Assembly: GCA_964383665.1 (NCBI GenBank)
Contig: CAYLHO010000001.1
Coordinates: 166,921-230,920 of the forward strand
Reading direction: 5' to 3'
From: an uncultured Lachnospiraceae bacterium
GTDB lineage: Bacteria > Bacillota > Clostridia > Christensenellales > UBA1242
DNA length: 64,000 bases
Shown here: in pieces, positions 4,433 through 36,585 of the stretch
Layout: every line of letters begins with the position of its first letter
How positions within the stretch are numbered: the stretch's first letter is position 1
Program-made: the position numbers and the translations under genes
The notes under the pieces: model-generated
Seen by the model: the letters and a program-made list of their open reading frames with translations, nothing else
What the model was told of the DNA's origin: nothing
Database searches by the model: none

Positions 4433-4867
4433 ATGAGAAAATCTGCAAGAGAAGTTGCTTTTATGCTTATATATGAAAGTTTGTTCAACAAAGAAAGAGA
4501 TGTTGAACTTTCTTTTGATTCCTTTTCAAAGGAATTTGCATGTGGGAACGAAATTTTTGGCGAAAGCGCTCTCGACATTGAAGATGAAGTTTATGTTAAG
4601 CAAATTGTTTGCCTTTTTGAAGCAAATCGTGAACAAATTGAAACGCTTATTAAAAATAATATTTTTGGTTATGAAACAGACAGGGTTTACAAGGTTGATT
4701 TTGCACTTCTCGACCTTGCAGTAACAGAAATTTATCACTACCACACAGCGCCCGCTGTTGTTGTTAATGAAATTCTTGAAATTGCAAAGAAATATTCAAC
4801 AGAAAAGAGCGCTAAATTTATTAACGGAGTTTTAGGAGCAATCTTAAAAGAATATCCAGTTGAATAG
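4433..4867 (+). CDS. nusB: transcription antitermination factor NusB
   Basis: MRKSAREVAFMLIYE N-terminus and an EIAKKYSTEKSAKFINGVL C-terminal motif. Synteny with xseA/xseB. Confidence 0.9.
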   Translation: MRKSAREVAFMLIYESLFNKERDVELSFDSFSKEFACGNEIFGESALDIEDEVYVKQIVCLFEANREQIETLIKNNIFGYETDRVYKVDFALLDLAVTEIYHYHTAPAVVVNEILEIAKKYSTEKSAKFINGVLGAILKEYPVE

Positions 4868-4878
4868 GGACATAAACA

Positions 4879-6000
4879 ATGGAGCAAAAAGCAATTTCGG
4901 TTTCGCAACTTAGCGGTTATATTAAGGGAATTTTCGACGCGGAAGAGCTTTTACACAATATAAGTGTTTATGGCGAAATTTCGGGTCTTTCTGTTTTGCG
5001 TGGGAATGCATATTTCTCACTTAAAGACGAGGACGCGCTTCTTTCGTGCGTGTTTTTTGGCGCAGACGAATCGAAACTTAAAAATGGTGACCTTATTGTT
5101 GCAACCGGAACGCCAAGATACTATGTTAAAGGCGGGAAACTCAATTTTAATGTTGTTCGCGTTGAACCATACGGAATTGGCGAACTTTTTAAAAAGTTTT
5201 TGGAAACAAAGGAAAAACTTGAACGCGAAGGCTTGTTCTCTCAAGAACATAAAATTGATATCCCTCAAAATGTTAAAAAAATTGGGGTTGTAACTTCGGA
5301 AAAAGGTGCGGTTATTCGCGACATAATAAACGTTTCTTCAAGGCGGAATAGAGCAGTTAGCATCTCTGTTTACCCCTCGCGGGTTCAAGGGGAAGGAGCG
5401 GACAAGGAAATTATTGACGGAATTAGATATTTCGACGAAAAAAGCGATGTTGATGTTATTCTTGTTGCCCGCGGCGGTGGATCATTTGAGGATTTAATGC
5501 CGTTCAACAGCGAGGATCTTGCAAGGGTTGTTTATGACTGCCAAAAACCAATTGTTTCGGCGGTTGGGCATGAAACAGATTTCACAATTATTGATTTTGT
5601 TTCGGATTTGCGTGCGCCAACACCTTCGGCGGCTGCGGAACTTATTGTTCTTCCGCGAAGAGAAAAAGTTTTGGAAATAACATCAAAATTTGAATATTTA
5701 TCAAGCCTCATATCCAAAAAAAATGACCAAAGCGTTCGAAACATGCTTGATTTGAAACGAGATTTGGATAATGGCGTTAAAAACCTTCTTAATTTGCATG
5801 AGTTTAGCCTTGGAATGAGCGTGCAAGCGCTTGAGAAACTTAATCCAAACAAAATTTTGGAAAGGGGTTATGCAAAAATTGAGAAAAACGGAAATAATGT
5901 AAACTCAATTTCCGACGTTTGCCTTAAAGATAGTTTGGAGATATATCTAAAAGGTGGTAAAATTGAAGTTGAAGTTGAAAAAGTGGAGGAAAGAAAATGA
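4879..6000 (+). CDS. xseA: exodeoxyribonuclease VII large subunit
   Basis: OB-fold N-terminus (SVSQLSGYIK, GEISG) and the catalytic region ARGGGSFEDL, VGHETDFTI, DLRAPTPSAAAE. Confidence 0.92.
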   Translation: MEQKAISVSQLSGYIKGIFDAEELLHNISVYGEISGLSVLRGNAYFSLKDEDALLSCVFFGADESKLKNGDLIVATGTPRYYVKGGKLNFNVVRVEPYGIGELFKKFLETKEKLEREGLFSQEHKIDIPQNVKKIGVVTSEKGAVIRDIINVSSRRNRAVSISVYPSRVQGEGADKEIIDGIRYFDEKSDVDVILVARGGGSFEDLMPFNSEDLARVVYDCQKPIVSAVGHETDFTIIDFVSDLRAPTPSAAAELIVLPRREKVLEITSKFEYLSSLISKKNDQSVRNMLDLKRDLDNGVKNLLNLHEFSLGMSVQALEKLNPNKILERGYAKIEKNGNNVNSISDVCLKDSLEIYLKGGKIEVEVEKVEERK

Positions 6001-6215
6001 AAGACAGTTTAACATTTGAGCAGGCAGAAAAACGACTTCAAGAAATTGCTCTTAAACTTGAAGACGAAAAATTGCCATTTTCCGAAGCGCAAAAGCTTTA
6101 TGAAGAGGGCTGCGAACTTGTTAAGTTTTGCCTTTCGTCTTTGGATGAAACCAAGGGAAAGCTTACAATAATCAAAAAAGAACTTGATGAATTTATCGAG
6201 GAAAAATTTGAATAA
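5997..6215 (+). CDS. xseB: exodeoxyribonuclease VII small subunit
   Basis: 72-aa helical protein overlapping the xseA stop by 4 nt. Contains the FEQAEKRLQEI, LPFSEAQKLYEEG motif. Confidence 0.85.
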   Translation: MKDSLTFEQAEKRLQEIALKLEDEKLPFSEAQKLYEEGCELVKFCLSSLDETKGKLTIIKKELDEFIEEKFE

Positions 6216-17613: not shown

Positions 17614-18372
17614 ATGGAGGAAAATAAAAATTAACAAATAAAAGCACGAAAAATGCTGTTAAAAAATCAGCAAAAAAAGATGAAACAGTTGTTAATGTTA
17701 ACGGGGAACAACCTGTTTCAATTTCAGTTCCAAACGAAACTGGAAACAGCAAAACCGAAGGAACAAACATAAACCTAACAATTAATTTTGCTGACGATAA
17801 AAAGAAAAAGCAAACAACAAAAAAGAAACCATCGAAAAAGAAAAACGAACAACAAAAGGAAAACGAAGTGAAGAAGAAAAAGTCTTATTGGTGGTGTCAC
17901 ATCAGTTGTTATGTTCTGCGGCAGCAAAGTCTTAAAAGCAATTTCCAACAAAATTAAAAGTTTTAAGAATCGCGATATTTCGCAAGAACAAATTGAAAGA
18001 GCAGTTTCAACAGCAAAAGCAGGGGATTGTAAGGAGCTTAATGATTTATTAAATAAAAAAGCAAGTAAAGTTGCACAACAAGTTCGTGCAGAAAATCCTA
18101 ACTGGACTAAAATGCGACAAGGATCAGAGATTCATAAAAGAATGAGTTATAGTCTTAACACAATTAAAGAATTTGATTTAAATTCTTATGGAAGAGCAGA
18201 TGGTATAGATGATATTGTAGGTATAATATTTGAGTTAAGACCACTCACCCCGAAATCTATGCTGGCAGGTTTGAAACAATTAGATAGATACGAGCAGGGC
18301 GCATTGCGTCACCAAGACTTGCAAAAAATTACAAATTGGATTAAAGTATTAATTACTTATGATACAAATTAA
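17614..18372 (+). pseudogene. frameshifted gene: Lys-rich N-terminal region, hydrophobic segment and C-terminal PD-(D/E)xK nuclease-like (polymorphic-toxin-type) domain
   Basis: Promoter-like sequence and an AAGGGGAG RBS precede the ATG at 17614, but a stop follows after 6 codons. The reading frame continues in frame 3 (17628-17900) and then frame 1 (17872-18372). Both shifts lie in A runs. The C-terminus has GSEIH, GRADGIDDIVGIIFELRP and GLKQLDRY. Confidence 0.5.
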
Positions 18373-18387
18373 AAGAAAGGGGAATTT

Positions 18388-18837
18388 ATGAAAACTATAG
18401 TCAACAACATAGGAGATGGCATTAGTGTTGTCGAGACCAATAAGAGAAATTGTGAATTTGCAACAAAAGAAATATTGTTGGAATATTTGAAAGAGCAATT
18501 CAAAAAATCCGGATTCAAAAAGACGAAGCAAACATGGTATAAAGATGATGGAGAGTTAATATATGTTTTTAATGTCCAAAATTCTCAATATGGAAGTGAC
18601 ACTTTTTATTTTAATATAGGTTTAATTTTTTCAAAAAAGGGCTTTAAGATGTCAAATCAAGAATGGAATTGTTGGGCGAGATTTCCATATGGGAAAACAA
18701 TGGAAAATACTTTTGAAAACATACTAAAATGGTTTGAAAAATATAATTCAATCGACAAGATAAAGGTGGAATCAACAAAACCAGTCAAATGTCTCACAGA
18801 TCCAAGATGGCGTTTGGGTGAAATCTTGGGCAAATAG
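18388..18837 (+). CDS. immunity-protein-like hypothetical (DUF4304-like)
   Basis: Starts 15 nt after the toxin-like ORF, behind an AAAGGGGAA RBS. LKEQFKKSGFKKTKQTWYKDDGELIYVFNVQNSQYGSDTFYFNIGL resembles the DUF4304 core (from memory). Confidence 0.5.
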   Translation: MKTIVNNIGDGISVVETNKRNCEFATKEILLEYLKEQFKKSGFKKTKQTWYKDDGELIYVFNVQNSQYGSDTFYFNIGLIFSKKGFKMSNQEWNCWARFPYGKTMENTFENILKWFEKYNSIDKIKVESTKPVKCLTDPRWRLGEILGK

Positions 18838-19192: not shown

Positions 19193-19957
19193 TCAGTTAA
19201 CTTGAACTTTGAATGAGACTGTTATTGTTCCGTTTGCCGGAAGATTTGGAAGGGGGAAACCAGTTGTTGGGTTGTAAGTTGGCTGTGGAGTTCCGTTAAC
19301 AACAACACTTTCGTTAACAAAAGTTACGTCAGAAGGAATTGAGTCGGAGAAAACAATATTCGTGTTTTCAAGCGAGCCTTCGTTTGTTATCGTTATTGTG
19401 TAGGTCATTTCGTTTCCTGAAACAACGGCAACAGGAGAGCATTCCTTCAAAAGATAGACTTCATTTTCCACGATGCTAATCTCCTTTTCATTTGATGTTA
19501 ATGAGAATTCTTGGCTGTCGAAGGTTAAAGTTAAATCAGTTTTGTTTTTAACAACCGATTCTTCCGGATATTCTGAAATTTGAATTTCGTAAGTTATCTC
19601 TGCGAAAGCGCCAAAACCGCCAATTTGGGCGTTTGAAGAAAACCCAGTTATTGGATTAAATGTTGGTTCGGGCTCATCGCTTATTTTAACAGTTCCCGGA
19701 ACAAACGATGCGCCCGGGGAAAGAGTGTCTTTAAAAGTGAAATTTTGGATTGTTAAATTCGAGTTGTTTGTTATTTTTGTTGTGACCGTTATTTTTTCTT
19801 TTGGAAGAGCCCAATCTTTTTGAACCGTTTTTTCAACAATAAAATCCGATTCAACCTTGGTTGTTGTGCAAACATTGCTGAAAGTTGTTAAATCAATTTT
19901 TCCGCCGTCTGGGTTGTCGATTTGAGATGTTATTTGCGCCTTGTTAACAATTCCCAT
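19193..19957 (-). CDS. tandem DUF11 (conserved repeat domain) protein without an obvious signal peptide
   Basis: Two about 110-aa repeats of the form T-x-T-I-T-N-x-G/S, D-[ST]-[IL]-[SP], FV, G[ST]V, NP-x-TGF. Examples are MTYTITITNEGSLENTNIVFSDSIPSDVTFV and ITVTTKITNNSNLTIQNFTFKDTLSPGASFV. The N-terminus MGIVNKAQITSQ is hydrophilic. Confidence 0.7.
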   Translation of the reverse strand: MGIVNKAQITSQIDNPDGGKIDLTTFSNVCTTTKVESDFIVEKTVQKDWALPKEKITVTTKITNNSNLTIQNFTFKDTLSPGASFVPGTVKISDEPEPTFNPITGFSSNAQIGGFGAFAEITYEIQISEYPEESVVKNKTDLTLTFDSQEFSLTSNEKEISIVENEVYLLKECSPVAVVSGNEMTYTITITNEGSLENTNIVFSDSIPSDVTFVNESVVVNGTPQPTYNPTTGFPLPNLPANGTITVSFKVQVN

Positions 19958-20056: not shown

Positions 20057-22405
20057 ATGGCAGATAAATTCTCAACAAAAGAATATTTGGAAAAACTGAA
20101 CAAATATTGGAATGCGGCAAACTACCTTTCGGCGGGGCAACTATATTTGCTTGATAATCCGCTTTTGCGCGATCACGAACTTTCAATGGAAGATGTTAAG
20201 AAAAAACTTGTTGGGCATTGGGGAACTGTTCCGGGGCAAAACTTTATTTATGCCCATTGCAATCGCCTTGTTAACAAGTTTGATCAAGATGTCCTTTTCA
20301 TTTCTGGGCCTGGGCATGGCGGGAATTTTTTAACTGCAAACAGTTATTTGGAAGGCGTTTACAGCGAGGTTTATCCGGAAATTTCACAAGACAAAGAGGG
20401 AATGAAAAAACTTTTCAAACAGTTCTCTTTTCCTGGTGGAATTGGTTCTCATTGTGTTCCTGAAACACCAGGGTCAATTCATGAGGGTGGGGAACTTGGT
20501 TACAGCCTTGCTCATGCGTTTGGGGCAGTTTTGGATAATCCAAATTTGATTACTGTAACGGTTGTTGGCGACGGCGAAGCGGAAACAGGGCCGCTTGCAA
20601 CGTCGTGGTTTGGCTGCAAGTTTATTAACCCAAAAACAGATGGGATTGTTCTTCCAATTTTGCATTTGAATGGCTATAAAATTTCCAATCCAACCGTTCT
20701 TTCCCGCCTTTCAAAAAGAGAGCTTGAAAATCTTTTTGATGGCTATGGCTATAAACCATACTTTGTTGAGGGAAATGAGCCTTTTGAAATGCACAAAAAG
20801 ATGGCAAAAGCAATTGACCTGTGCATGAGCGACATTTCAAAGCTTAAAAAGCAAGGTCAAAGCGAAACCCTTAAATTCCCAATGATTGTTTTAAGAACCC
20901 CAAAAGGTTGGACTTGTCCAAAATTTGTTAATGGGAAACGGATTGAAGGGTCGTTCAGGGCACATCAAGTTCCTCTTGTTGTTGAAAATGAAAAGGATCT
21001 TGAAATTCTTAAAAATTGGCTTTTAAGTTATAACCCAAACGAACTTTTTGACGAAAACTATAAACTGCGTTCCGAAATTCAGGAAATTTTGCCAAAAGGC
21101 GAAAAGAGAATTTCGGCATCAAAATTTGCAAATGGCGGCGAACTTTTGAAAGAACTTAAAACGCCGTCGATAAACAAATATGCTGTTAAATTTAAGGGGC
21201 ATGGAACTGTTAAAGCGCAGGATATGCTTGAACTTGGCGGATATATAAGAGATTTGTTTGTTTTGAATAAGGACAACAAAAACTACAGAATTTTTAGCCC
21301 AGACGAGGCGATGAGTAACAGATTATACAAGGTTTTTGACGTTGAAAGTAGAGCATTCAACTCAAAAATTTATGAAACTGACGACAAACTTTCGCAAAAC
21401 GGAAGAATTCACGATTCTTTTCTTTCCGAGCATCTTTGCGAGGGAATGCTTGAAGGCTATCTTTTAACTGGGCGTCATGGCATGTTCGACAGTTATGAAG
21501 CATTTATTCGCGTTGTTGACAGCATGGTTGCGCAGCATGCAAAGTGGCTTAAGGTTTGCAACGAGATTGAATGGCGAAAGCCAATTTCTTCGCTTAACTT
21601 AATTTTAACAAGTAATGTTTGGCAACAAGACCACAACGGTTTCACCCATCAAGACCCTGGATTCTTGGACCATATTGTAAGCAAAAAGGCAGATGTTGTT
21701 CGAGTTTATCTTCCTGCCGATGCAAATTGTCTTCTCTCGTGTTACGACCATTGCGCAAAAAGCAAAAACTATGTTAACACAATTGTTGCGTCAAAACACC
21801 CGCGCTGGCAATGGCTTTCAATTGATGAAGCAAAAGAACATTGCAAAAAAGGCGTTGGGGAGTGGACTTGGGCTGGAATGAACAACACCGCGCGCCCTGA
21901 TCTTGTTATTGCGTCTTGCGGCGACACTGCAACCGTTGAGTCGCTTGCAACAGTTTCGCTTTTGAAAAAGTTGCTTCCAAAACTTAATGTTCGCTTTGTT
22001 AACATTGTTGATCTTATGAAACTTGTTTCAAACAAGTCCCACCCTCATGGTCTTACGGACAGCGAATATAACGCAATTTTCACTTTGAACAAGCCAATAA
22101 TTTTCAATTTCCATGGATATCCAACATTAATTCATCAATTAACATACAATCGAAAGAACCGAAATCTTCATGTTTCGGGATATCAAGAAGAAGGAACAAT
22201 AACAACGTCTTTCGATATGTGTGCGCTTAACAAAACCGACAGATATCATCAACTTTTAAAAATTGTTAAATACATCGATTTGACGGAAGAAGAGAGAGAT
22301 GAAATTGTTAAATTTGCGAAATCAAAGTTAAAACAAAACCATGATTACATTCGTAAATTTGGCGTTGACATGCCGGAAATTGCAAATTGGAACTGGAACG
22401 ATTAA
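20057..22405 (+). CDS. xfp: xylulose-5-phosphate/fructose-6-phosphate phosphoketolase
   Basis: Start is the ATG at 20057, behind GGAGGG. Contains YWNAANYLSAGQLYL, GHWGTVPG, GPGHGG, EGGELGY, and GDGEAETGP (ThDP site). Confidence 0.92.
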   Translation: MADKFSTKEYLEKLNKYWNAANYLSAGQLYLLDNPLLRDHELSMEDVKKKLVGHWGTVPGQNFIYAHCNRLVNKFDQDVLFISGPGHGGNFLTANSYLEGVYSEVYPEISQDKEGMKKLFKQFSFPGGIGSHCVPETPGSIHEGGELGYSLAHAFGAVLDNPNLITVTVVGDGEAETGPLATSWFGCKFINPKTDGIVLPILHLNGYKISNPTVLSRLSKRELENLFDGYGYKPYFVEGNEPFEMHKKMAKAIDLCMSDISKLKKQGQSETLKFPMIVLRTPKGWTCPKFVNGKRIEGSFRAHQVPLVVENEKDLEILKNWLLSYNPNELFDENYKLRSEIQEILPKGEKRISASKFANGGELLKELKTPSINKYAVKFKGHGTVKAQDMLELGGYIRDLFVLNKDNKNYRIFSPDEAMSNRLYKVFDVESRAFNSKIYETDDKLSQNGRIHDSFLSEHLCEGMLEGYLLTGRHGMFDSYEAFIRVVDSMVAQHAKWLKVCNEIEWRKPISSLNLILTSNVWQQDHNGFTHQDPGFLDHIVSKKADVVRVYLPADANCLLSCYDHCAKSKNYVNTIVASKHPRWQWLSIDEAKEHCKKGVGEWTWAGMNNTARPDLVIASCGDTATVESLATVSLLKKLLPKLNVRFVNIVDLMKLVSNKSHPHGLTDSEYNAIFTLNKPIIFNFHGYPTLIHQLTYNRKNRNLHVSGYQEEGTITTSFDMCALNKTDRYHQLLKIVKYIDLTEEERDEIVKFAKSKLKQNHDYIRKFGVDMPEIANWNWND

Positions 22406-22410
22406 CATAT

Positions 22411-22445
22411 AAAATGCAACAACCATATTCGTTGTTGCATTTTTT
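22411..22445 (+). terminator. intrinsic terminator after xfp
   Basis: 10-bp stem ATGCAACAAC/GTTGTTGCAT followed by T5. Confidence 0.8.
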
Positions 22446-22463
22446 AAAAATTTATTGTATAAT
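22435..22463 (+). promoter_or_regulatory. near-consensus sigma-A promoter driving the large ncRNA
   Basis: TTGCAT (22435-22440), a 17-nt spacer ending in TG, then TATAAT (22458-22463). Confidence 0.7.
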
Positions 22464-22469
22464 ACTTAT

Positions 22470-23096
22470 GAAGGCGCAGTATTCTAGTCGAACAGACTTG
22501 ACCACATGACGTTAAAAGCGTTAAATGGCACAACTGTGAAGTTTCTGGTGTTGGCTTTGGTTGCCCAAACTGGGGCTGATGCTGGGAGTTAAGATTTTTG
22601 GGAGCGCTGTAATGGCATACAGAGTTGCGGCCCAGATTTCGTGGAGACCCAAGCGTTGGTGGTTTCAAATAAGAAGGCACTTCTTGGGATAAAACCTGCA
22701 TTGCGGTAAAAAAATTGCTGTGTGCAGTGTAGCCAGCCTTGAGTGGGGTGTTGGGATAAAGTTAACTGGCTAATTTAGTTTGGCCAAACGAATTTAGTCA
22801 AAGCTTATAACTAGCGGGCTTTTGAAATTCATTCTGCAAAATGGGATAAGGTCAAATCTCTGTTTGTTTGAGAAATTCTCTAGACTGTTTGCACCAAGCG
22901 GCGCAATTCGCTTCGGGGATTATAGTGTGGTCTAAGTGGCGATTCGGTGATGTCAACCTCTTAAATGGAAACGGCTTATTCGGCGACGAAAAGTGGGGAA
23001 GCGGGAAATCCAACCGAACCTATGCTGCAAGGTTTACCCGAATTTGCGAGCTCTTTGGCGAAAAAGAAGGAATTGAAATACATACCTTCTTTTTTT
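22470..23096 (+). ncRNA. large structured non-coding RNA, best explained as OLE (ornate, large, extremophilic) RNA
   Basis: About 625 nt from the predicted TSS to a hairpin plus U tract (23065-23096). Local G+C is clearly above the flanks. There are many short helices and only RBS-less, non-protein-like ORFs. An OapA-like membrane protein gene follows directly. Identity was not verified with a covariance model. Confidence 0.6.
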
Positions 23097-23137
23097 ATGC
23101 TTGTTATATCTGCAAAAATATGCTATTATAATAATAT

Positions 23138-23833
23138 ATGGAAGATGAATTAAACAAAAATTTGACATCTCAAGAAGATGAAATAAAAACCGAAAAGATG
23201 CGGCAAGACGAAACCGACGGGCAAAAAGCAAAGAAGGCGGATTTAAAAACCGCGGCAGCCAAAGCGGCAAAGAAAAAGGTTCAACCATGGTGGGCTTGGC
23301 CAATAAAGATTTTGGTTATTGCAATGAGCCTTTCCCTTGCGTTCAGCGTTTTAAGCGAACTTTTGCTTTCGAATGTTGGAATTGCTGTTTCGGTTGTGGT
23401 TATTGTTTTCTTTGTTTCGCTTGGGATTTTAACCGATATGATTGGTGTTGCGGCAACTGCATGTTCAATTGAACCGTTTGCGGCAATGTGTTCGAGGAAA
23501 GTTCGTGGGGCAAAAGTTGCAATGGCGCTTGTTAAAAATGCAGAAAAAGTTTCAAGCATGTGTTGCGATGTTTGTGGTGATATTTGCGGAATCCTTTCTG
23601 GAACGGCTGGGGCAGCGATAACAGTTAAGTTGATTTCCGAAAGTGTGGGTAACTCGCTTCAAATTTTGATTGCAGGGCTTGTTAGTGCAACAATTGCTGG
23701 GTTAACGATTTTTGGAAAGGCAATGTGTAAAAAATTTGCAATTAACAATTGTTCAAAAATAATTCTTGGCGTTGGGAAATGCTGCAGCATTTTTTCAAGG
23801 AAAAAGAAAAATGAAAAGCAAGGTAAAAAATAA
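23138..23833 (+). CDS. multi-pass membrane protein, OapA-like (OLE-associated protein A candidate)
   Basis: 231-aa product with a Lys/Glu-rich N-terminal tail and about 4 TM helices. Conserved-looking cytoplasmic loops are TDMIGVAATACSIEPFAAM and CCDVCGDICGILSG. Its position directly after the large RNA is the main argument. Confidence 0.5.
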   Translation: MEDELNKNLTSQEDEIKTEKMRQDETDGQKAKKADLKTAAAKAAKKKVQPWWAWPIKILVIAMSLSLAFSVLSELLLSNVGIAVSVVVIVFFVSLGILTDMIGVAATACSIEPFAAMCSRKVRGAKVAMALVKNAEKVSSMCCDVCGDICGILSGTAGAAITVKLISESVGNSLQILIAGLVSATIAGLTIFGKAMCKKFAINNCSKIILGVGKCCSIFSRKKKNEKQGKK

Positions 23834-23846
23834 GCCTTGCTTTTTT
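23818..23846 (+). terminator. intrinsic terminator after the OapA-like gene
   Basis: GCAAGG/CCTTGC hairpin spanning the stop codon, followed by T6. Confidence 0.7.
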
Positions 23847-23926
23847 GTTTTTTAAACAAAAAAATTTTTTAAAAAATTTTGGCAGACCCTATTGCATTTT
23901 GTTTTTAAGTGTGATATTATCTCTAA

Positions 23927-24031
23927 TGTTGAGATTGAACTTGGCTTTTCGGCCCTCCCGAAATATCGAGTTATTAAATTCAAATTAGGAATTTAAGAAA
24001 ATAAAAATCAGCTTATGTGAGCTGATTTTTT
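23927..24031 (+). ncRNA. candidate ~105-nt sRNA with a C-rich (anti-Shine-Dalgarno) loop
   Basis: Promoter is TTGCAT (23892-23897), 17 nt, TATTAT (23915-23920). Hairpin TTTCGG-CCCTC-CCGAAA lies at 23947-23963. Terminator is ATCAGCT/AGCTGAT plus T6 (24007-24031). There is no RBS-preceded ORF. Confidence 0.35.
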
Positions 24032-24162
24032 ATTTTAATCTTTTAGCGAAGTGCTATGCAAAAAAAACAAGAAATTTTTGGAGTAGGGCAGAGGTGTATA
24101 TTCATTTATATTTATAAATTACTTTTGTATTGAAATTCAAATTATAAATTTTTATAAAAAAC

Positions 24163-24270
24163 TGCATAAATTTTTATGCAAAAATCGCTTGCATATTTAT
24201 AAATTATGATGTATAATCATTCCAAACCTTGAAAAAGAACTTGAATATTTATGAATTTATAAATATTCAT
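24163..24270 (+). promoter_or_regulatory. argR promoter with ARG-box-like palindromes
   Basis: TGCATAAATTTTTATGCA (24163-24180). Promoter is TTGCAT (24189-24194), 17 nt, TATAAT (24212-24217). Downstream are TTGAATATTTATGAATTT and TGAATTTATAAATATTCA (24241-24269). Confidence 0.45.
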
Positions 24271-24362
24271 AATCGCTAAACAGCCCTAAAATAGGTGTAT
24301 ATAGCGATTTTAAAACTTAAAACTTTGATACGTTTTTAAAAACTTTAAAACGGCGAAAAAGT

Positions 24363-24877: not shown

Positions 24878-24906
24878 AAAAAGCGCCAAGGTTTGGTGCT
24901 TTTTTT
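24874..24906. terminator. bidirectional terminator between argR and the recombinase gene
   Basis: A-run, AGCGCCAA/TTGGTGCT hairpin, then a T run. Confidence 0.7.
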
Positions 24907-25936
24907 ATCTCAATTTAACTGCAGTTGATGCGTTTCGGCGAATGTCGTCGTCAATTGCCGCATAGTGTTTTTTCGTTGTGTTAACGTCTTTGTGTCCAAG
25001 AACGTCGGCAACAATGTAGATATCATGAGTTTCGCGATATAGGCTTGTTCCATAGGTGCTTCGAAGTTTATGAGGCGAAATTTTTTTAAGCGGAGTTACT
25101 GCTTGAGCATATTTCTTAACTAAATTTTCAACCGCGCGCGGGGTTATTCTTTTTCTTTGAAGAGAAAGGAAAAGTGCTTGCTCATCGGGATTTACGTCGG
25201 AAAGTTTTTCGCGAGCATTAAGCCATGTTATAAGGGCTTCCTTAATTTCGTTAGAGAAGTATAAAACGGTTTCATTTCCGCCTTTTCGCGTTATTTTAAA
25301 ACTGTTTGTTTCCAAATTTATGTCGGAAACATTAAGCCCAACAAGTTCGCTGATACGTATTCCTGTCCCAAGAAAGGTTGTTAGAATTGCAACATCTCGT
25401 TCGCGAGTTTTGCGATTGTATGTGATTTCCCTTTTCGTAAGATTTTCCGGGCATTCTGCCTCGTCGAGAAGGCGAGCGACTTCATCGGGTTCAAGACGAA
25501 TTATCTCCTTGTCGTGAATTTTTGGGGTTGCAATTTTGGTTATGACGTTTGAAGAAATAAGGTCGCTGTTAAAAAGAAACTTAAACAAACTTCGAATTGC
25601 TGAAAGTTTTCGTGCTTTGCCTTTTTCTTTGTTAATGTGAACTTTCCCGTCCTTTTCGAAGTAGGAAACGTAGCTTAAAAAACGTTCAACATCACGAGAT
25701 TTAAGGTTGTTAAGCTGGGAAAGTGTTATGTTGTTTGGTGAAACACCAAGAGTGTTTCCAAGATATGTGAAAAAGAGTTTTAAATCGGTTAGATAGTTAA
25801 CTCTAGTAAGCGGCGAGGTGTTGTTCTCAATTGATATAACAAAATCTTGAACGTATGATGGAAAAAACATAAGTTCTTGTTGAATTTTCTTTTGATTAAG
25901 AAGATCTCGTTGTGTGTGATAGCTGATGTTTGCCAT
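24905..25936 (-). CDS. XerS-like tyrosine site-specific recombinase
   Basis: 343-aa product. Catalytic residues are present: GIRISE (Arg), TRKGG (Lys), PHKLRST (His-x-x-Arg), LGHKDVNTTKKHY (His and Tyr). The central region (RERDVAILTTFLGTGIRISELVGLNVSDINLETNSFKITRKGG) closely parallels streptococcal XerS as I remember it. Confidence 0.75.
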   Translation of the reverse strand: MANISYHTQRDLLNQKKIQQELMFFPSYVQDFVISIENNTSPLTRVNYLTDLKLFFTYLGNTLGVSPNNITLSQLNNLKSRDVERFLSYVSYFEKDGKVHINKEKGKARKLSAIRSLFKFLFNSDLISSNVITKIATPKIHDKEIIRLEPDEVARLLDEAECPENLTKREITYNRKTRERDVAILTTFLGTGIRISELVGLNVSDINLETNSFKITRKGGNETVLYFSNEIKEALITWLNAREKLSDVNPDEQALFLSLQRKRITPRAVENLVKKYAQAVTPLKKISPHKLRSTYGTSLYRETHDIYIVADVLGHKDVNTTKKHYAAIDDDIRRNASTAVKLR

Positions 25937-34887: not shown

Positions 34888-36585
34888 TTATATTTTCATT
34901 TTAAATTTTCTGTTGTTTTCAAGGGTTTCTTTTGTAATTTCAAGCTTCTTTTCGTCAACGCTTCCATAAGTTAAAAGCGCAATTTGATAAGTAATTTCGT
35001 CGCTAGAAAGATTTTTAATTGACGTTTGGGTTCTTTCGCCGTCGCTTGACTTTGAAACGAAGAAATAGGAATCGCCCATGGACGCAACTTGCGGCAAATG
35101 GGAAATGCAAAGAACTTGATAGCTCCTTGAAAGTTTGGCAATTTTTTCGGCAACTTGTGTTGCAACTTTTCCGCTTATTCCCGAATCAATTTCATCAAAA
35201 ATTAAAGTTGCAGGGCCGTTTATGTTTGCAATTATTGTTTTGAAAGCAAGCATAAAGCGGTTCATCTCGCCCCCAGAAATTGTTTTTGCAAGAGGTTTAA
35301 GTTCCTCGCCAAAATTTGCGCTGAACAAAAATTCAACATCTTCAAGGCAGTTCATGGAATATGTTTCAATTTCGTAAAGTGAGTTTGCAAGAGGGAAAAA
35401 GTTAACTTTGAATTGCGCTTTCAAAATTCCAAGTTCGGCAAGCGCCGCCGTAAGTTTTTGTTCAATTTCGTTTGCGTGAGCGCGGCGAATTTGCCCCAAC
35501 TCGTTAAATTTTAAAGTTGCTTTTTCAATAAGATTTTTCTTCTCGCTGTTAAGCGAACTTAAAATCTCTTTCGAGTTCTTAAGCATTTCAAGCTCGGACG
35601 ATGCATGTTCATAAAACTTGTTAATTTCGTTAAGGCTTCCGCCATATTTTCGTTTAAGCGAATCAATAACGTCGCGTCGTTCAATCATTTGATTAAGTTC
35701 GTTTTCGTTGAAATCGTATTCGCTTGAAAGCGAAAAAACTTCTTCTCCAAGCTCCTCAAGATTGATTATATTTTCATCAAGTTTTTGGGCAAGGTCACAA
35801 AGTTTATCGTCATATTTTTCAACGCAGCGAAGCGAATTTAAGCATTTTTTAAGAATTTCAAGCGCTCCGTTTTCTTCAATAAGCATGCTTGAGGAAGTTG
35901 AAATTGATTCCATAATCTTTTCCGAATTTGAAAGTTTCTTAAGTTTTTCTTCCAAAATTATGTCTTCATTTTCAACAAGGTTTGCATTCTCAATTTCGTT
36001 AACTTGGAAAGAGAGAAGGTCAATTTGGCGTTCGCGGCTTGCTTCGTCTCCGCCAAGTTTTTTAATTTTTGACGAAATTTCGTTAAGAGAAACAAGCATA
36101 TTTTCAATTTCATTTTTAACTTTTTCTTCGTCTTTTGGCTTGTATAAATCGAGAATTTCAAGGTGATTCTTTTGTTTTAAAAGCGAAATACTTTCGTTTT
36201 GGCCGTAGGAATCAACAAGAGCTTCGCCAACCTGTTTAAGCATTGAAACAGTTACAATTTCGCCGTTGATTCGTGATTCACCTTTTCCATTTTGGGAGAA
36301 TGATCTTGAAAGAAGAACCTCGTTTGATTGTTCAATCCCAAAACTTTCAAGAACAGAATTAACATGAGTTGAAATGTTTGAGAATAAGGCAGAAACAACC
36401 ATTGTTTCCTCGCCTGCGCGAATTAAAGTTTTATCGGCTTTGCTTCCAAGCGCAAAGTTGAGAGAATCGATTATTATGCTTTTTCCAGCGCCAGTTTCAC
36501 CAAGAATAACATTAAAACCGCTGTGAAAATCAATTTCAAGCGATTTAATTAATGCAACATTTTTGATTTTAAGTTTCTCAAGCAT
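34888..36585 (-). CDS. recN: DNA repair protein RecN
   Basis: Walker A GETGAGKS, long coiled coil, signature SGGE and Walker B LIFDEIDSG. Confidence 0.93.
   Translation of the reverse strand: MLEKLKIKNVALIKSLEIDFHSGFNVILGETGAGKSIIIDSLNFALGSKADKTLIRAGEETMVVSALFSNISTHVNSVLESFGIEQSNEVLLSRSFSQNGKGESRINGEIVTVSMLKQVGEALVDSYGQNESISLLKQKNHLEILDLYKPKDEEKVKNEIENMLVSLNEISSKIKKLGGDEASRERQIDLLSFQVNEIENANLVENEDIILEEKLKKLSNSEKIMESISTSSSMLIEENGALEILKKCLNSLRCVEKYDDKLCDLAQKLDENIINLEELGEEVFSLSSEYDFNENELNQMIERRDVIDSLKRKYGGSLNEINKFYEHASSELEMLKNSKEILSSLNSEKKNLIEKATLKFNELGQIRRAHANEIEQKLTAALAELGILKAQFKVNFFPLANSLYEIETYSMNCLEDVEFLFSANFGEELKPLAKTISGGEMNRFMLAFKTIIANINGPATLIFDEIDSGISGKVATQVAEKIAKLSRSYQVLCISHLPQVASMGDSYFFVSKSSDGERTQTSIKNLSSDEITYQIALLTYGSVDEKKLEITKETLENNRKFKMKI

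Follow-up and report, generated by a model that had tools for sequence, protein, structure and literature searches.

The 64,000-nt stretch of DNA analyzed here, referred to below as the window (positions 166,921 to 230,920 of contig CAYLHO010000001.1, from an uncultured Lachnospiraceae bacterium), carries xfp, an RNA of the OLE (ornate, large, extremophilic) family, oapA, argR, a tyrosine recombinase gene on the minus strand, and serS, in an order that is retained in close relatives. The xfp coding sequence, which encodes three XFP Pfam domains, ends at position 22405, and the next credible coding sequence, oapA, begins at 23138, 732 nt further on. The xfp intrinsic terminator hairpin (22411 to 22446, plus strand; −14.8 kcal/mol, z-score −6.6) precedes a gap of 692 nt, which agrees with the noncoding region of about 690 bp described in an earlier prediction made from the sequence (the original prediction). 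The region is also rich in G+C, as had been noted (43.8% in 22455 to 23100 versus 36.4% in the whole window). Open reading frames (ORFs) of 85 to 89 codons at 22444 to 22701 (minus strand), 22868 to 23131 (plus strand), and 23034 to 23303 (minus strand) exist there in a mechanical sense only.

The whole window was scanned against all 4227 Rfam families at their gathering thresholds. Three matches were returned in total, two tRNAs and OLE (RF01071), the latter at 22455 to 23069 on the plus strand with 334.1 bits (gathering threshold, 50) and an E value of 1.7e-94, covering model positions 1 to 616 without truncation. The full-length match bears out the OLE identity that the original prediction had proposed and excludes its fallback, an unclassified large noncoding RNA; ROOL, GOLLD, HEARO, raiA, RNase P, and tmRNA gave no match in the same scan of the window. 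The OLE RNA core extends on the plus strand from a predicted 5′ end at 22470 (GAAGGCGCAG...) to a weak P1 3′ strand ending at 23057, about 590 nt, and the distance from the predicted start near 22470 to the end of a downstream U tract is about 627 nt, close to the 625 nt expected. The Rfam structure projected onto the window comprises 148 pairs, of which 131 are canonical. The short helices that had been offered as examples (22730 to 22736 with 22766 to 22772, 22896 to 22900 with 22909 to 22913, and 22671 to 22676 with 22680 to 22685) are not among them, their arms being unpaired or paired elsewhere. The window RNA belongs to the OLE family and is both conserved and structured. This family was reportedly described by Puerta-Fernandez et al. 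in 2006, with Halalkalibacterium halodurans, Clostridium acetobutylicum, and Clostridium botulinum as representatives.

The gene that follows, oapA (23138 to 23833, plus strand), encodes a 231-amino-acid (aa) membrane protein, and OLE is found upstream of its homologs as well. Its assignment to OapA follows published descriptions of that protein's hallmarks. OapA is distinguished by a DxxxD motif that is absent from true CNNM domains and has a CNNM-like fold (PMC11332333); further published hallmarks are a gene immediately downstream of ole, four predicted transmembrane helices, and a basic cytoplasmic cluster. These hallmarks are present in the window protein, so that the multi-pass protein of OapA type anticipated downstream of the RNA is indeed encoded there. 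The DxxxD motif is D144-V-C-G-D148, with both aspartates invariant among 16 aligned homologs. The AlphaFold2 model (pLDDT 69.7) contains long helices at residues 53 to 75, 79 to 108, 135 to 168, and 173 to 203; hydropathy backs helices at 53 to 78, 81 to 108, and 173 to 195, and the DxxxD-bearing helix is less hydrophobic. Residues 1 to 47 are charged and disordered. Lysine and arginine together number 6 in the loop at 109 to 140 and 11 in the tail at 197 to 231, and both segments are presumed to lie on the cytoplasmic face.

In a Foldseek comparison of the OapA model, ranks 1 to 6 were occupied by MtCorB (7M1T/7M1U) and CorC (7CFF/7CFG), with probabilities of 0.97 to 1.00, query TM-scores of 0.39 to 0.47, and E values from 4.7e-3 to 0.45, and a CNNM/CorB-like fold is accordingly the predicted one for this model. 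The presence of 7M1U among the best structural matches supports the OapA identity, since CorB 7M1U is also the top published structural match of H. halodurans OapA (PMC11332333). Some of the 752 OapA homologs have weak precomputed matches to PF01595 (CNNM). Points of likeness between OapA and the CNNM Mg2+ transporters MpfA, CorB, and CorC are the four transmembrane helices, DxxxD, the basic cytoplasmic segments, and the CorB/CorC structures as best PDB matches. The conserved CNNM proline is described as absent from OapA. Unlike these transporters, the window protein starts with about 50 additional N-terminal residues that are charged and disordered, and, unlike MpfA and CorB, it has no CBS or CorC-HlyC domains; nor does it have a sequence-level match to the Pfam CNNM model.

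We regard it as nearly certain that 22470 to about 23057 encodes an OLE RNA and 23138 to 23833 its membrane partner OapA. Several observations weigh against this assignment. The Foldseek E values are weak, 4.7e-3 at best, and the structural model behind them is of medium confidence. No Pfam or NCBIfam model recognizes the 231-aa protein at an E value of ≤0.01, with only noise, and no CNNM, at ≤10, and a PDB sequence search with the protein returned nothing at an E value of ≤10. On the side of the RNA, the window copy scores 334 bits, less than each of the 15 relatives tested (345 to 418 bits); part of this low score is attributable to the absence of helix P13, the shortness of P4, and mismatched positions in P7 and P9.

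The 16-homolog OapA alignment was used to retrieve 80 related loci from species-representative genomes (referred to by L numbers where they need to be told apart), and nine closer loci were added by exact-protein look-ups. All 80 derive from metagenome-assembled genomes of uncultured gut Clostridia, Christensenellales-like organisms, or "Bacilli." An nhmmer search with the window RNA located OLE directly upstream of the OapA homolog, and on its strand, in 71/80 loci. In seven of the nine misses, the upstream sequence is shorter than 300 nt; the other two (L044 and L075) have 4 kb, within which no OLE was found upstream of the OapA homolog; two tRNA genes lie there in L044. Rfam likewise placed OLE directly upstream of the OapA homolog in 15/17 loci tested, with the 345 to 418 bits cited above. 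In three loci (L013, L018, and L066), OLE is found 0.7 to 3.2 kb upstream of the OapA homolog without adjoining it.

Covariation, which the original prediction had proposed to look for in relatives, was evaluated on 67 distinct OLE sequences aligned by MAFFT without any fitting to structure, and pairs were counted under the projected Rfam fold. Standard pairs filled 87.4% of the cells, versus 40 to 45% when the 3′ partners were slid, and the covariation score was 0.392 versus 0.08 to 0.12. Changes on both sides were present in 105/148 pairs, and none of 500 shuffles reached any of the observed pairing or covariation measures. About one in four nucleotides of OLE RNAs is nearly invariant, and the window contains every one of the long invariant blocks that it has in common with the 66 relatives. 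An identical OLE RNA occurs in contigs of three separate samples (L081 to L083), and the OLE RNAs of close relatives differ through compensatory substitutions. Under a different explanation, the region would encode one or more of the 85- to 89-aa proteins, on either strand, or another class of large noncoding RNA. The three ORFs do exist mechanically, but the substitutions are patterned as paired RNA helices, which contradicts a coding role for them, and the OLE model matches in full length with no other large-RNA Rfam family at threshold, so that this explanation has next to no chance of being correct.

The individual helices, all on the plus strand, also show how much of the published dimer is conserved. 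Cryo-electron microscopy of the OLE homodimer identified three contacts, namely, an A-rich P4 loop, an intermolecular kissing interaction between P5.1 and P6.1, and a P9-P9 kissing interaction (PMC12265935). The loop sequences of all these contacts are intact in the window. A short hairpin at 22508 to 22522 (GACG-UUAAAAG-CGUU, with an A-rich loop at 22512 to 22518) is taken to be P4 on the basis of its sequence; it is 98.5% paired across the alignment (helix 1), and 3/4 of its pairs covary. The long P5/P5.1 hairpin (22542 to 22588) has 20/20 canonical pairs and an invariant GCCCA loop (22563 to 22567); it is 97.3% paired, with 13 covarying pairs (helix 2), and its flanks contain conserved k-turn nucleotides. 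The loop of P6/P6.1 (22593 to 22640), AAUGGCAU at 22611 to 22618, is invariant as well and complementary to the P5.1 loop. The long P9 arm (22736 to 22846 in the Rfam structure) has a palindromic loop, UUUGGCCAAA (22779 to 22788). In relatives, the loop tetramer varies but is always self-complementary (GGCC, GCGC, GUAC, CGCG, and AGCU), and hexamers of the GACGUC type also occur. Change with retained self-complementarity fits the published P9-P9 kissing dimer and lends it comparative support.

Other parts of the fold are similarly maintained. The 5′ motif GCAGUAUUCUAGUC (22476 to 22489), whose columns are invariant or nearly so in the 67 sequences, can be read as complementary to CUAGACUGU at 22880 to 22888; the two are taken to be the P3/P3.1 helix, GCAGUAUUCUAGUC being its 5′ strand. 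P7 (22648 to 22688) has an outer stem, CCCAAG/CUUGGG, that shows compensatory changes (helix 5; 90.7% paired, 4/5 pairs covarying), and P8 (22696 to 22727) has 13/13 canonical pairs (helix 8; 96.1% paired). The 3′ multi-helix domain, in the P12 to P15 region (22902 to 23048), is closed by CGCAA/UUGCG and UUCGGG/CCCGAA. Its four enclosing helices are fully canonical, and helices 17 to 19 are 97 to 99% paired and covarying. Within it, the P14.1 hairpin (22974 to 22994) carries a GCGA tetraloop (22983 to 22986) on 8/8 canonical pairs. For P1, comparison with L001 and L003 indicated a weak 3′ strand at 23050 to 23056 (AAGGC with GCuCUU). A dual role of the downstream terminator's 3′ arm (CCUUC) as the P1 3′ strand was considered and dropped after the same comparison.

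The one element of the fold that is missing is P13. OapB of H. halodurans binds primarily at P13, which has a GNRA tetraloop and a bulge, and weakly at P14.1 as a secondary site (PMC7936274). The P13 slot in the window (22950 to 22952, plus strand) holds 3 nt (AUG) in place of 21 model positions (479 to 499). Among the 67 aligned sequences, 54 are without P13, with 3 to 8 nt in the slot, and 13 have a hairpin of about 22 nt that is mostly GNRA-capped. The loss in 54/67 sequences marks a stable lineage trait, and given the absence of P13 here, the OLE complex probably does without OapB. The P13 hairpins of L017, L022, and L072 have AU-rich rather than GNRA loops (in L017, UUUGAAG-AUAAAA-CUUCAAA) and may likewise not bind OapB.

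OLE RNAs of this kind have been described. "Variant 1" OLE RNAs, which come from TANB77 and further clades of uncultured gut bacteria, are often without the OapB site; their hosts are uncultured gut Clostridia with reduced genomes and are largely without OapB and OapC (Fernando and Breaker 2024; PMC11332333). The window copy resembles variant 1 in that the OapB-binding P13 nucleotides are missing and in having as relatives uncultured gut Clostridia that are represented solely by metagenome assemblies. One related genus is placed in order 4C28d-15, family UBA1242. In published variant 1 RNAs, P7, P8, and P9 are also shortened. They measure 41, 32, and 111 nt in the window, which is about the Rfam consensus length and slightly above the median length in the relatives; the long OLE of L061 exceeds the window copy in both P7 and P8. 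With the OLE RNA family as a whole (RF01071), the window copy shares a length of about 600 nt, the same invariant blocks, the covarying helices, the dimer-contact loop motifs, an immediately downstream oapA, and an anaerobic Bacillota host. It differs in having no P13 hairpin, and with only 3 nt in the slot it is not filed with the full-length, H. halodurans type. The RNA belongs to a known family in a known variant form, was found by a routine Rfam scan, and is of low novelty.

A reduced genome could also harbor a decaying, non-functional OLE remnant. In keeping with decay, the window has the lowest OLE bit score among the loci tested, has lost P13, and forms 17 of the 148 model pairs as non-canonical ones. 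However, the loss of P13 is common to most of the relatives, the invariant blocks and dimer-contact loops are all intact, and oapA is intact and conserved. The identical RNA in contigs of three separate samples and the compensatory substitutions between close relatives likewise speak for a maintained RNA, and we consider a remnant very improbable.

To delimit the transcript, promoter and terminator signals were compared between the window and its relatives. The OLE promoter (22435 to 22463, plus strand) is predicted from TTGCAT (22435 to 22440) and TATAAT (22458 to 22463), separated by 17 nt, with the −35 hexamer located in the 3′ arm of the xfp terminator stem, as the original prediction had recognized. 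That prediction had further called the promoter near-consensus with an upstream TG, and the description holds for the 17-nt spacer and the −10 hexamer (6/6), but not for the −35 hexamer, which agrees with TTGACA at only 3/6 positions, or for the TG, which directly abuts TATAAT and does not form a canonical TGn extended −10. A consensus scan applying a 4-of-6 rule does not list the promoter because of its −35 hexamer. The −10 hexamer and the TTG of the −35 hexamer are kept in L084, L087, L001, and L003, and 57/67 OLE loci have a −10 hexamer, mismatched at one position at most, 4 to 10 nt before the conserved 5′ GAAGG, which suggests that a promoter of its own is the rule for OLE in this clade. 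In L087 (3100 to 3320), the spacer between xfp and OLE exceeds that of the window by about 165 nt, in relatives with 83% identical OapA; the additional sequence in loci of this type is 5′ of the conserved OLE promoter.

Downstream of the RNA core, a terminator-like hairpin with a GAAGG/CCUUC core and a 14-nt loop is followed by seven U residues (23060 to 23096, plus strand; −10.3 kcal/mol, z-score −4.97), matching the terminal hairpin and U tract of the original prediction. Its loop exceeds 8 nt, so it was missed by the consensus terminator scan and was judged by folding and conservation. The hairpin is kept in close relatives, and in L001 and L087 its stem sequence is different. The OLE RNA of H. 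halodurans forms part of a polycistronic transcript; for the window copy, with a predicted promoter and terminator of its own, we infer a stand-alone transcript of about 625 nt that would run from the sigma-70-type promoter to the hairpin and U7.

The oapA gene begins 81 nt past the end of the OLE core and 42 nt past the terminator U tract. A promoter scan identified a putative oapA promoter at 23101 to 23132 on the plus strand (TTGTTA, 17 nt, TGcTATTAT, with an overlapping TATAAT), which ends 5 nt before the ATG. This block is kept in L084, L087, and L001, and the same geometry between the −10 hexamer and the ATG is found in L001, L003, L027, and L081 to L089. No Shine-Dalgarno sequence precedes oapA, whereas distant relatives have ribosome-binding sites of the AAGGAG type. 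The lack of a Shine-Dalgarno sequence and the position of TATAAT 5 nt before the ATG suggest that, in this subclade, the oapA mRNA is leaderless or nearly so, and oapA would be expressed from this second promoter. A hairpin over the oapA stop codon, followed by a U run, would terminate its transcription (23813 to 23846, plus strand; −14.5 kcal/mol, z-score −2.95).

The same signals can be read differently, with OLE and oapA in one transcription unit, as in H. halodurans, and the oapA mRNA beginning with OLE as its structured 5′ portion. The hairpin at 23060 to 23096 would then terminate leakily or serve in RNA processing or stability, and the oapA promoter would be a coincidental match in AT-rich DNA. 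In support of such a unit, the H. halodurans OLE cluster is transcribed as one polycistronic RNA, and the window hairpin has a long loop and only moderate predicted stability at the value given above. Promoter-like matches in this AT-rich region are also no more common than in shuffled sequence (7 found versus 6.7 expected). A hairpin with at least five T residues is present between OLE and oapA in 28/62 related loci and not in the other 34/62, and some OLE-oapA spacers are only 35 to 60 nt, so that co-transcription must occur in those loci; separate and joint transcription thus both seem to occur in the family. For the window, however, L001 retains the hairpin and U7 even though its stem differs, the spacing of TTGTTA-17-TATTAT/TATAAT to the ATG is kept across relatives with 62 to 91% identical OapA, and a start without a Shine-Dalgarno sequence is more in keeping with a leaderless mRNA than with an internal cistron. 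We consider a single transcription unit unlikely here, though with a sizable share of the probability, and favor separate OLE and oapA transcripts.

OLE usually resides in an isoprenoid/DNA-repair operon; in the window, it is flanked by xfp and argR instead. The original prediction had pointed to an OLE neighborhood containing nusB, xseA/xseB, argR, and recN. All of these genes are in the window, and argR is indeed the gene after oapA. They do not form one neighborhood, however: nusB (4433 to 4867), xseA (4879 to 6000), and xseB (5997 to 6215) are about 17 kb upstream of OLE, and recN (34888 to 36585, minus strand) is about 11 kb downstream, scattered around OLE without the contiguous cluster of typical OLE loci. 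The gene argR is among those common near ole, and the literature mentions ArgR as an unpublished candidate partner of OLE.

The spacer between oapA and argR has features of its own. A candidate small RNA of about 110 nt (23928 to 24040) is preceded by a promoter-like TTGCAT-17-TGaTATTAT (23893 to 23921), the whole element occupying 23893 to 24040. It folds into three hairpins, with a terminator at 24003 to 24030 followed by a U run (−31.7 kcal/mol, z-score −4.56), and compensatory changes are seen in its first hairpin when L084 and L087 are compared with the window. The candidate is confined to the closest relatives, and L087 and L088 have a 150- to 300-nt insertion within it. A permissive Rfam search of the spacer gave nothing credible, the best match having 22 bits and an E value of 0.3. 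Further downstream, an AT-rich block upstream of argR (24091 to 24299) hardly varies among the five closest relatives that were aligned and was detected by nhmmer downstream of oapA in 36 loci. It contains the palindromes TGCATAAATTTTTATGCA, TTGAAATTCAA, and TATGAAT...ATTCATA, a TTGCAT-17-TATAAT promoter, and a leader hairpin, AATCGCTA...TAGCGATT. The palindromes are probably ARG-box-like operators serving argR autoregulation, as judged from their sequence.

It is conceivable, if doubtful, that in the gut-Clostridia lineage of the window OLE has been pared down to a self-contained ole-oapA-argR module. Such a module would consist of a stand-alone OLE without the OapB site, a leaderless oapA, and ArgR next door behind the conserved operator-like block, to which the closest relatives would add the promoter-to-terminator RNA of about 110 nt (23928 to 24040) as an undescribed component.

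Elsewhere in the window, genes for NrdD and its activase (NrdD/NrdG-type), PFOR, and SpoIVB were identified, and the gene content fits an anaerobic Bacillota host for the window and its relatives. The tyrosine recombinase between argR and serS (24905 to 25936, minus strand; 343 aa) has a Phage_integrase domain and a SAM-like N domain. Its same position in all close relatives suggests a chromosomal Xer-type enzyme rather than a prophage integrase. Adjacent genes at 17911 to 18837 encode a protein with a Tox-REase-9 (restriction-endonuclease-fold toxin) domain and a DUF4304 protein and look like a polymorphic-toxin/immunity pair. A DUF11/CLIPPER-repeat protein is encoded after them at 19193 to 19957 on the minus strand.

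The function of the locus can be approached by analogy with the published OLE RNAs of H. halodurans and Clostridium. According to that literature, an OapA dimer binds OLE RNA, with cooperative binding described for OapA, and is needed for its localization to the membrane. OLE dimerizes, and its P3 helices have been proposed to cross the bilayer (PMC12265935). H. halodurans without the OLE complex is sensitive to cold, short-chain alcohols, excess Mg2+, and poor carbon sources. The Mg2+ transporter MpfA is a relative of OapA, and its occurrence is anticorrelated with that of OLE. By the same token, the window locus would specify this membrane ribonucleoprotein in a form that does not depend on OapB, in which an OapA dimer would tether an OLE RNA dimer to, and possibly through, the cytoplasmic membrane. 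The OLE-OapA ribonucleoprotein would aid the cell in coping with stresses such as those named above, and its most likely mechanism would be the scaffolding or regulation of a CNNM-like Mg2+-handling protein.

OLE is among the largest and best-conserved bacterial noncoding RNAs, and recent structures suggest that it may span the membrane. The window copy leaves knowledge of the family unchanged. Its correct annotation keeps 690 bp of this genome from staying blank or from being miscalled as small ORFs. As a naturally trimmed example, with no P13 and OapB site, a predicted promoter and terminator of its own, and an adjacent argR, it may help to define the minimal functional OLE-OapA complex.

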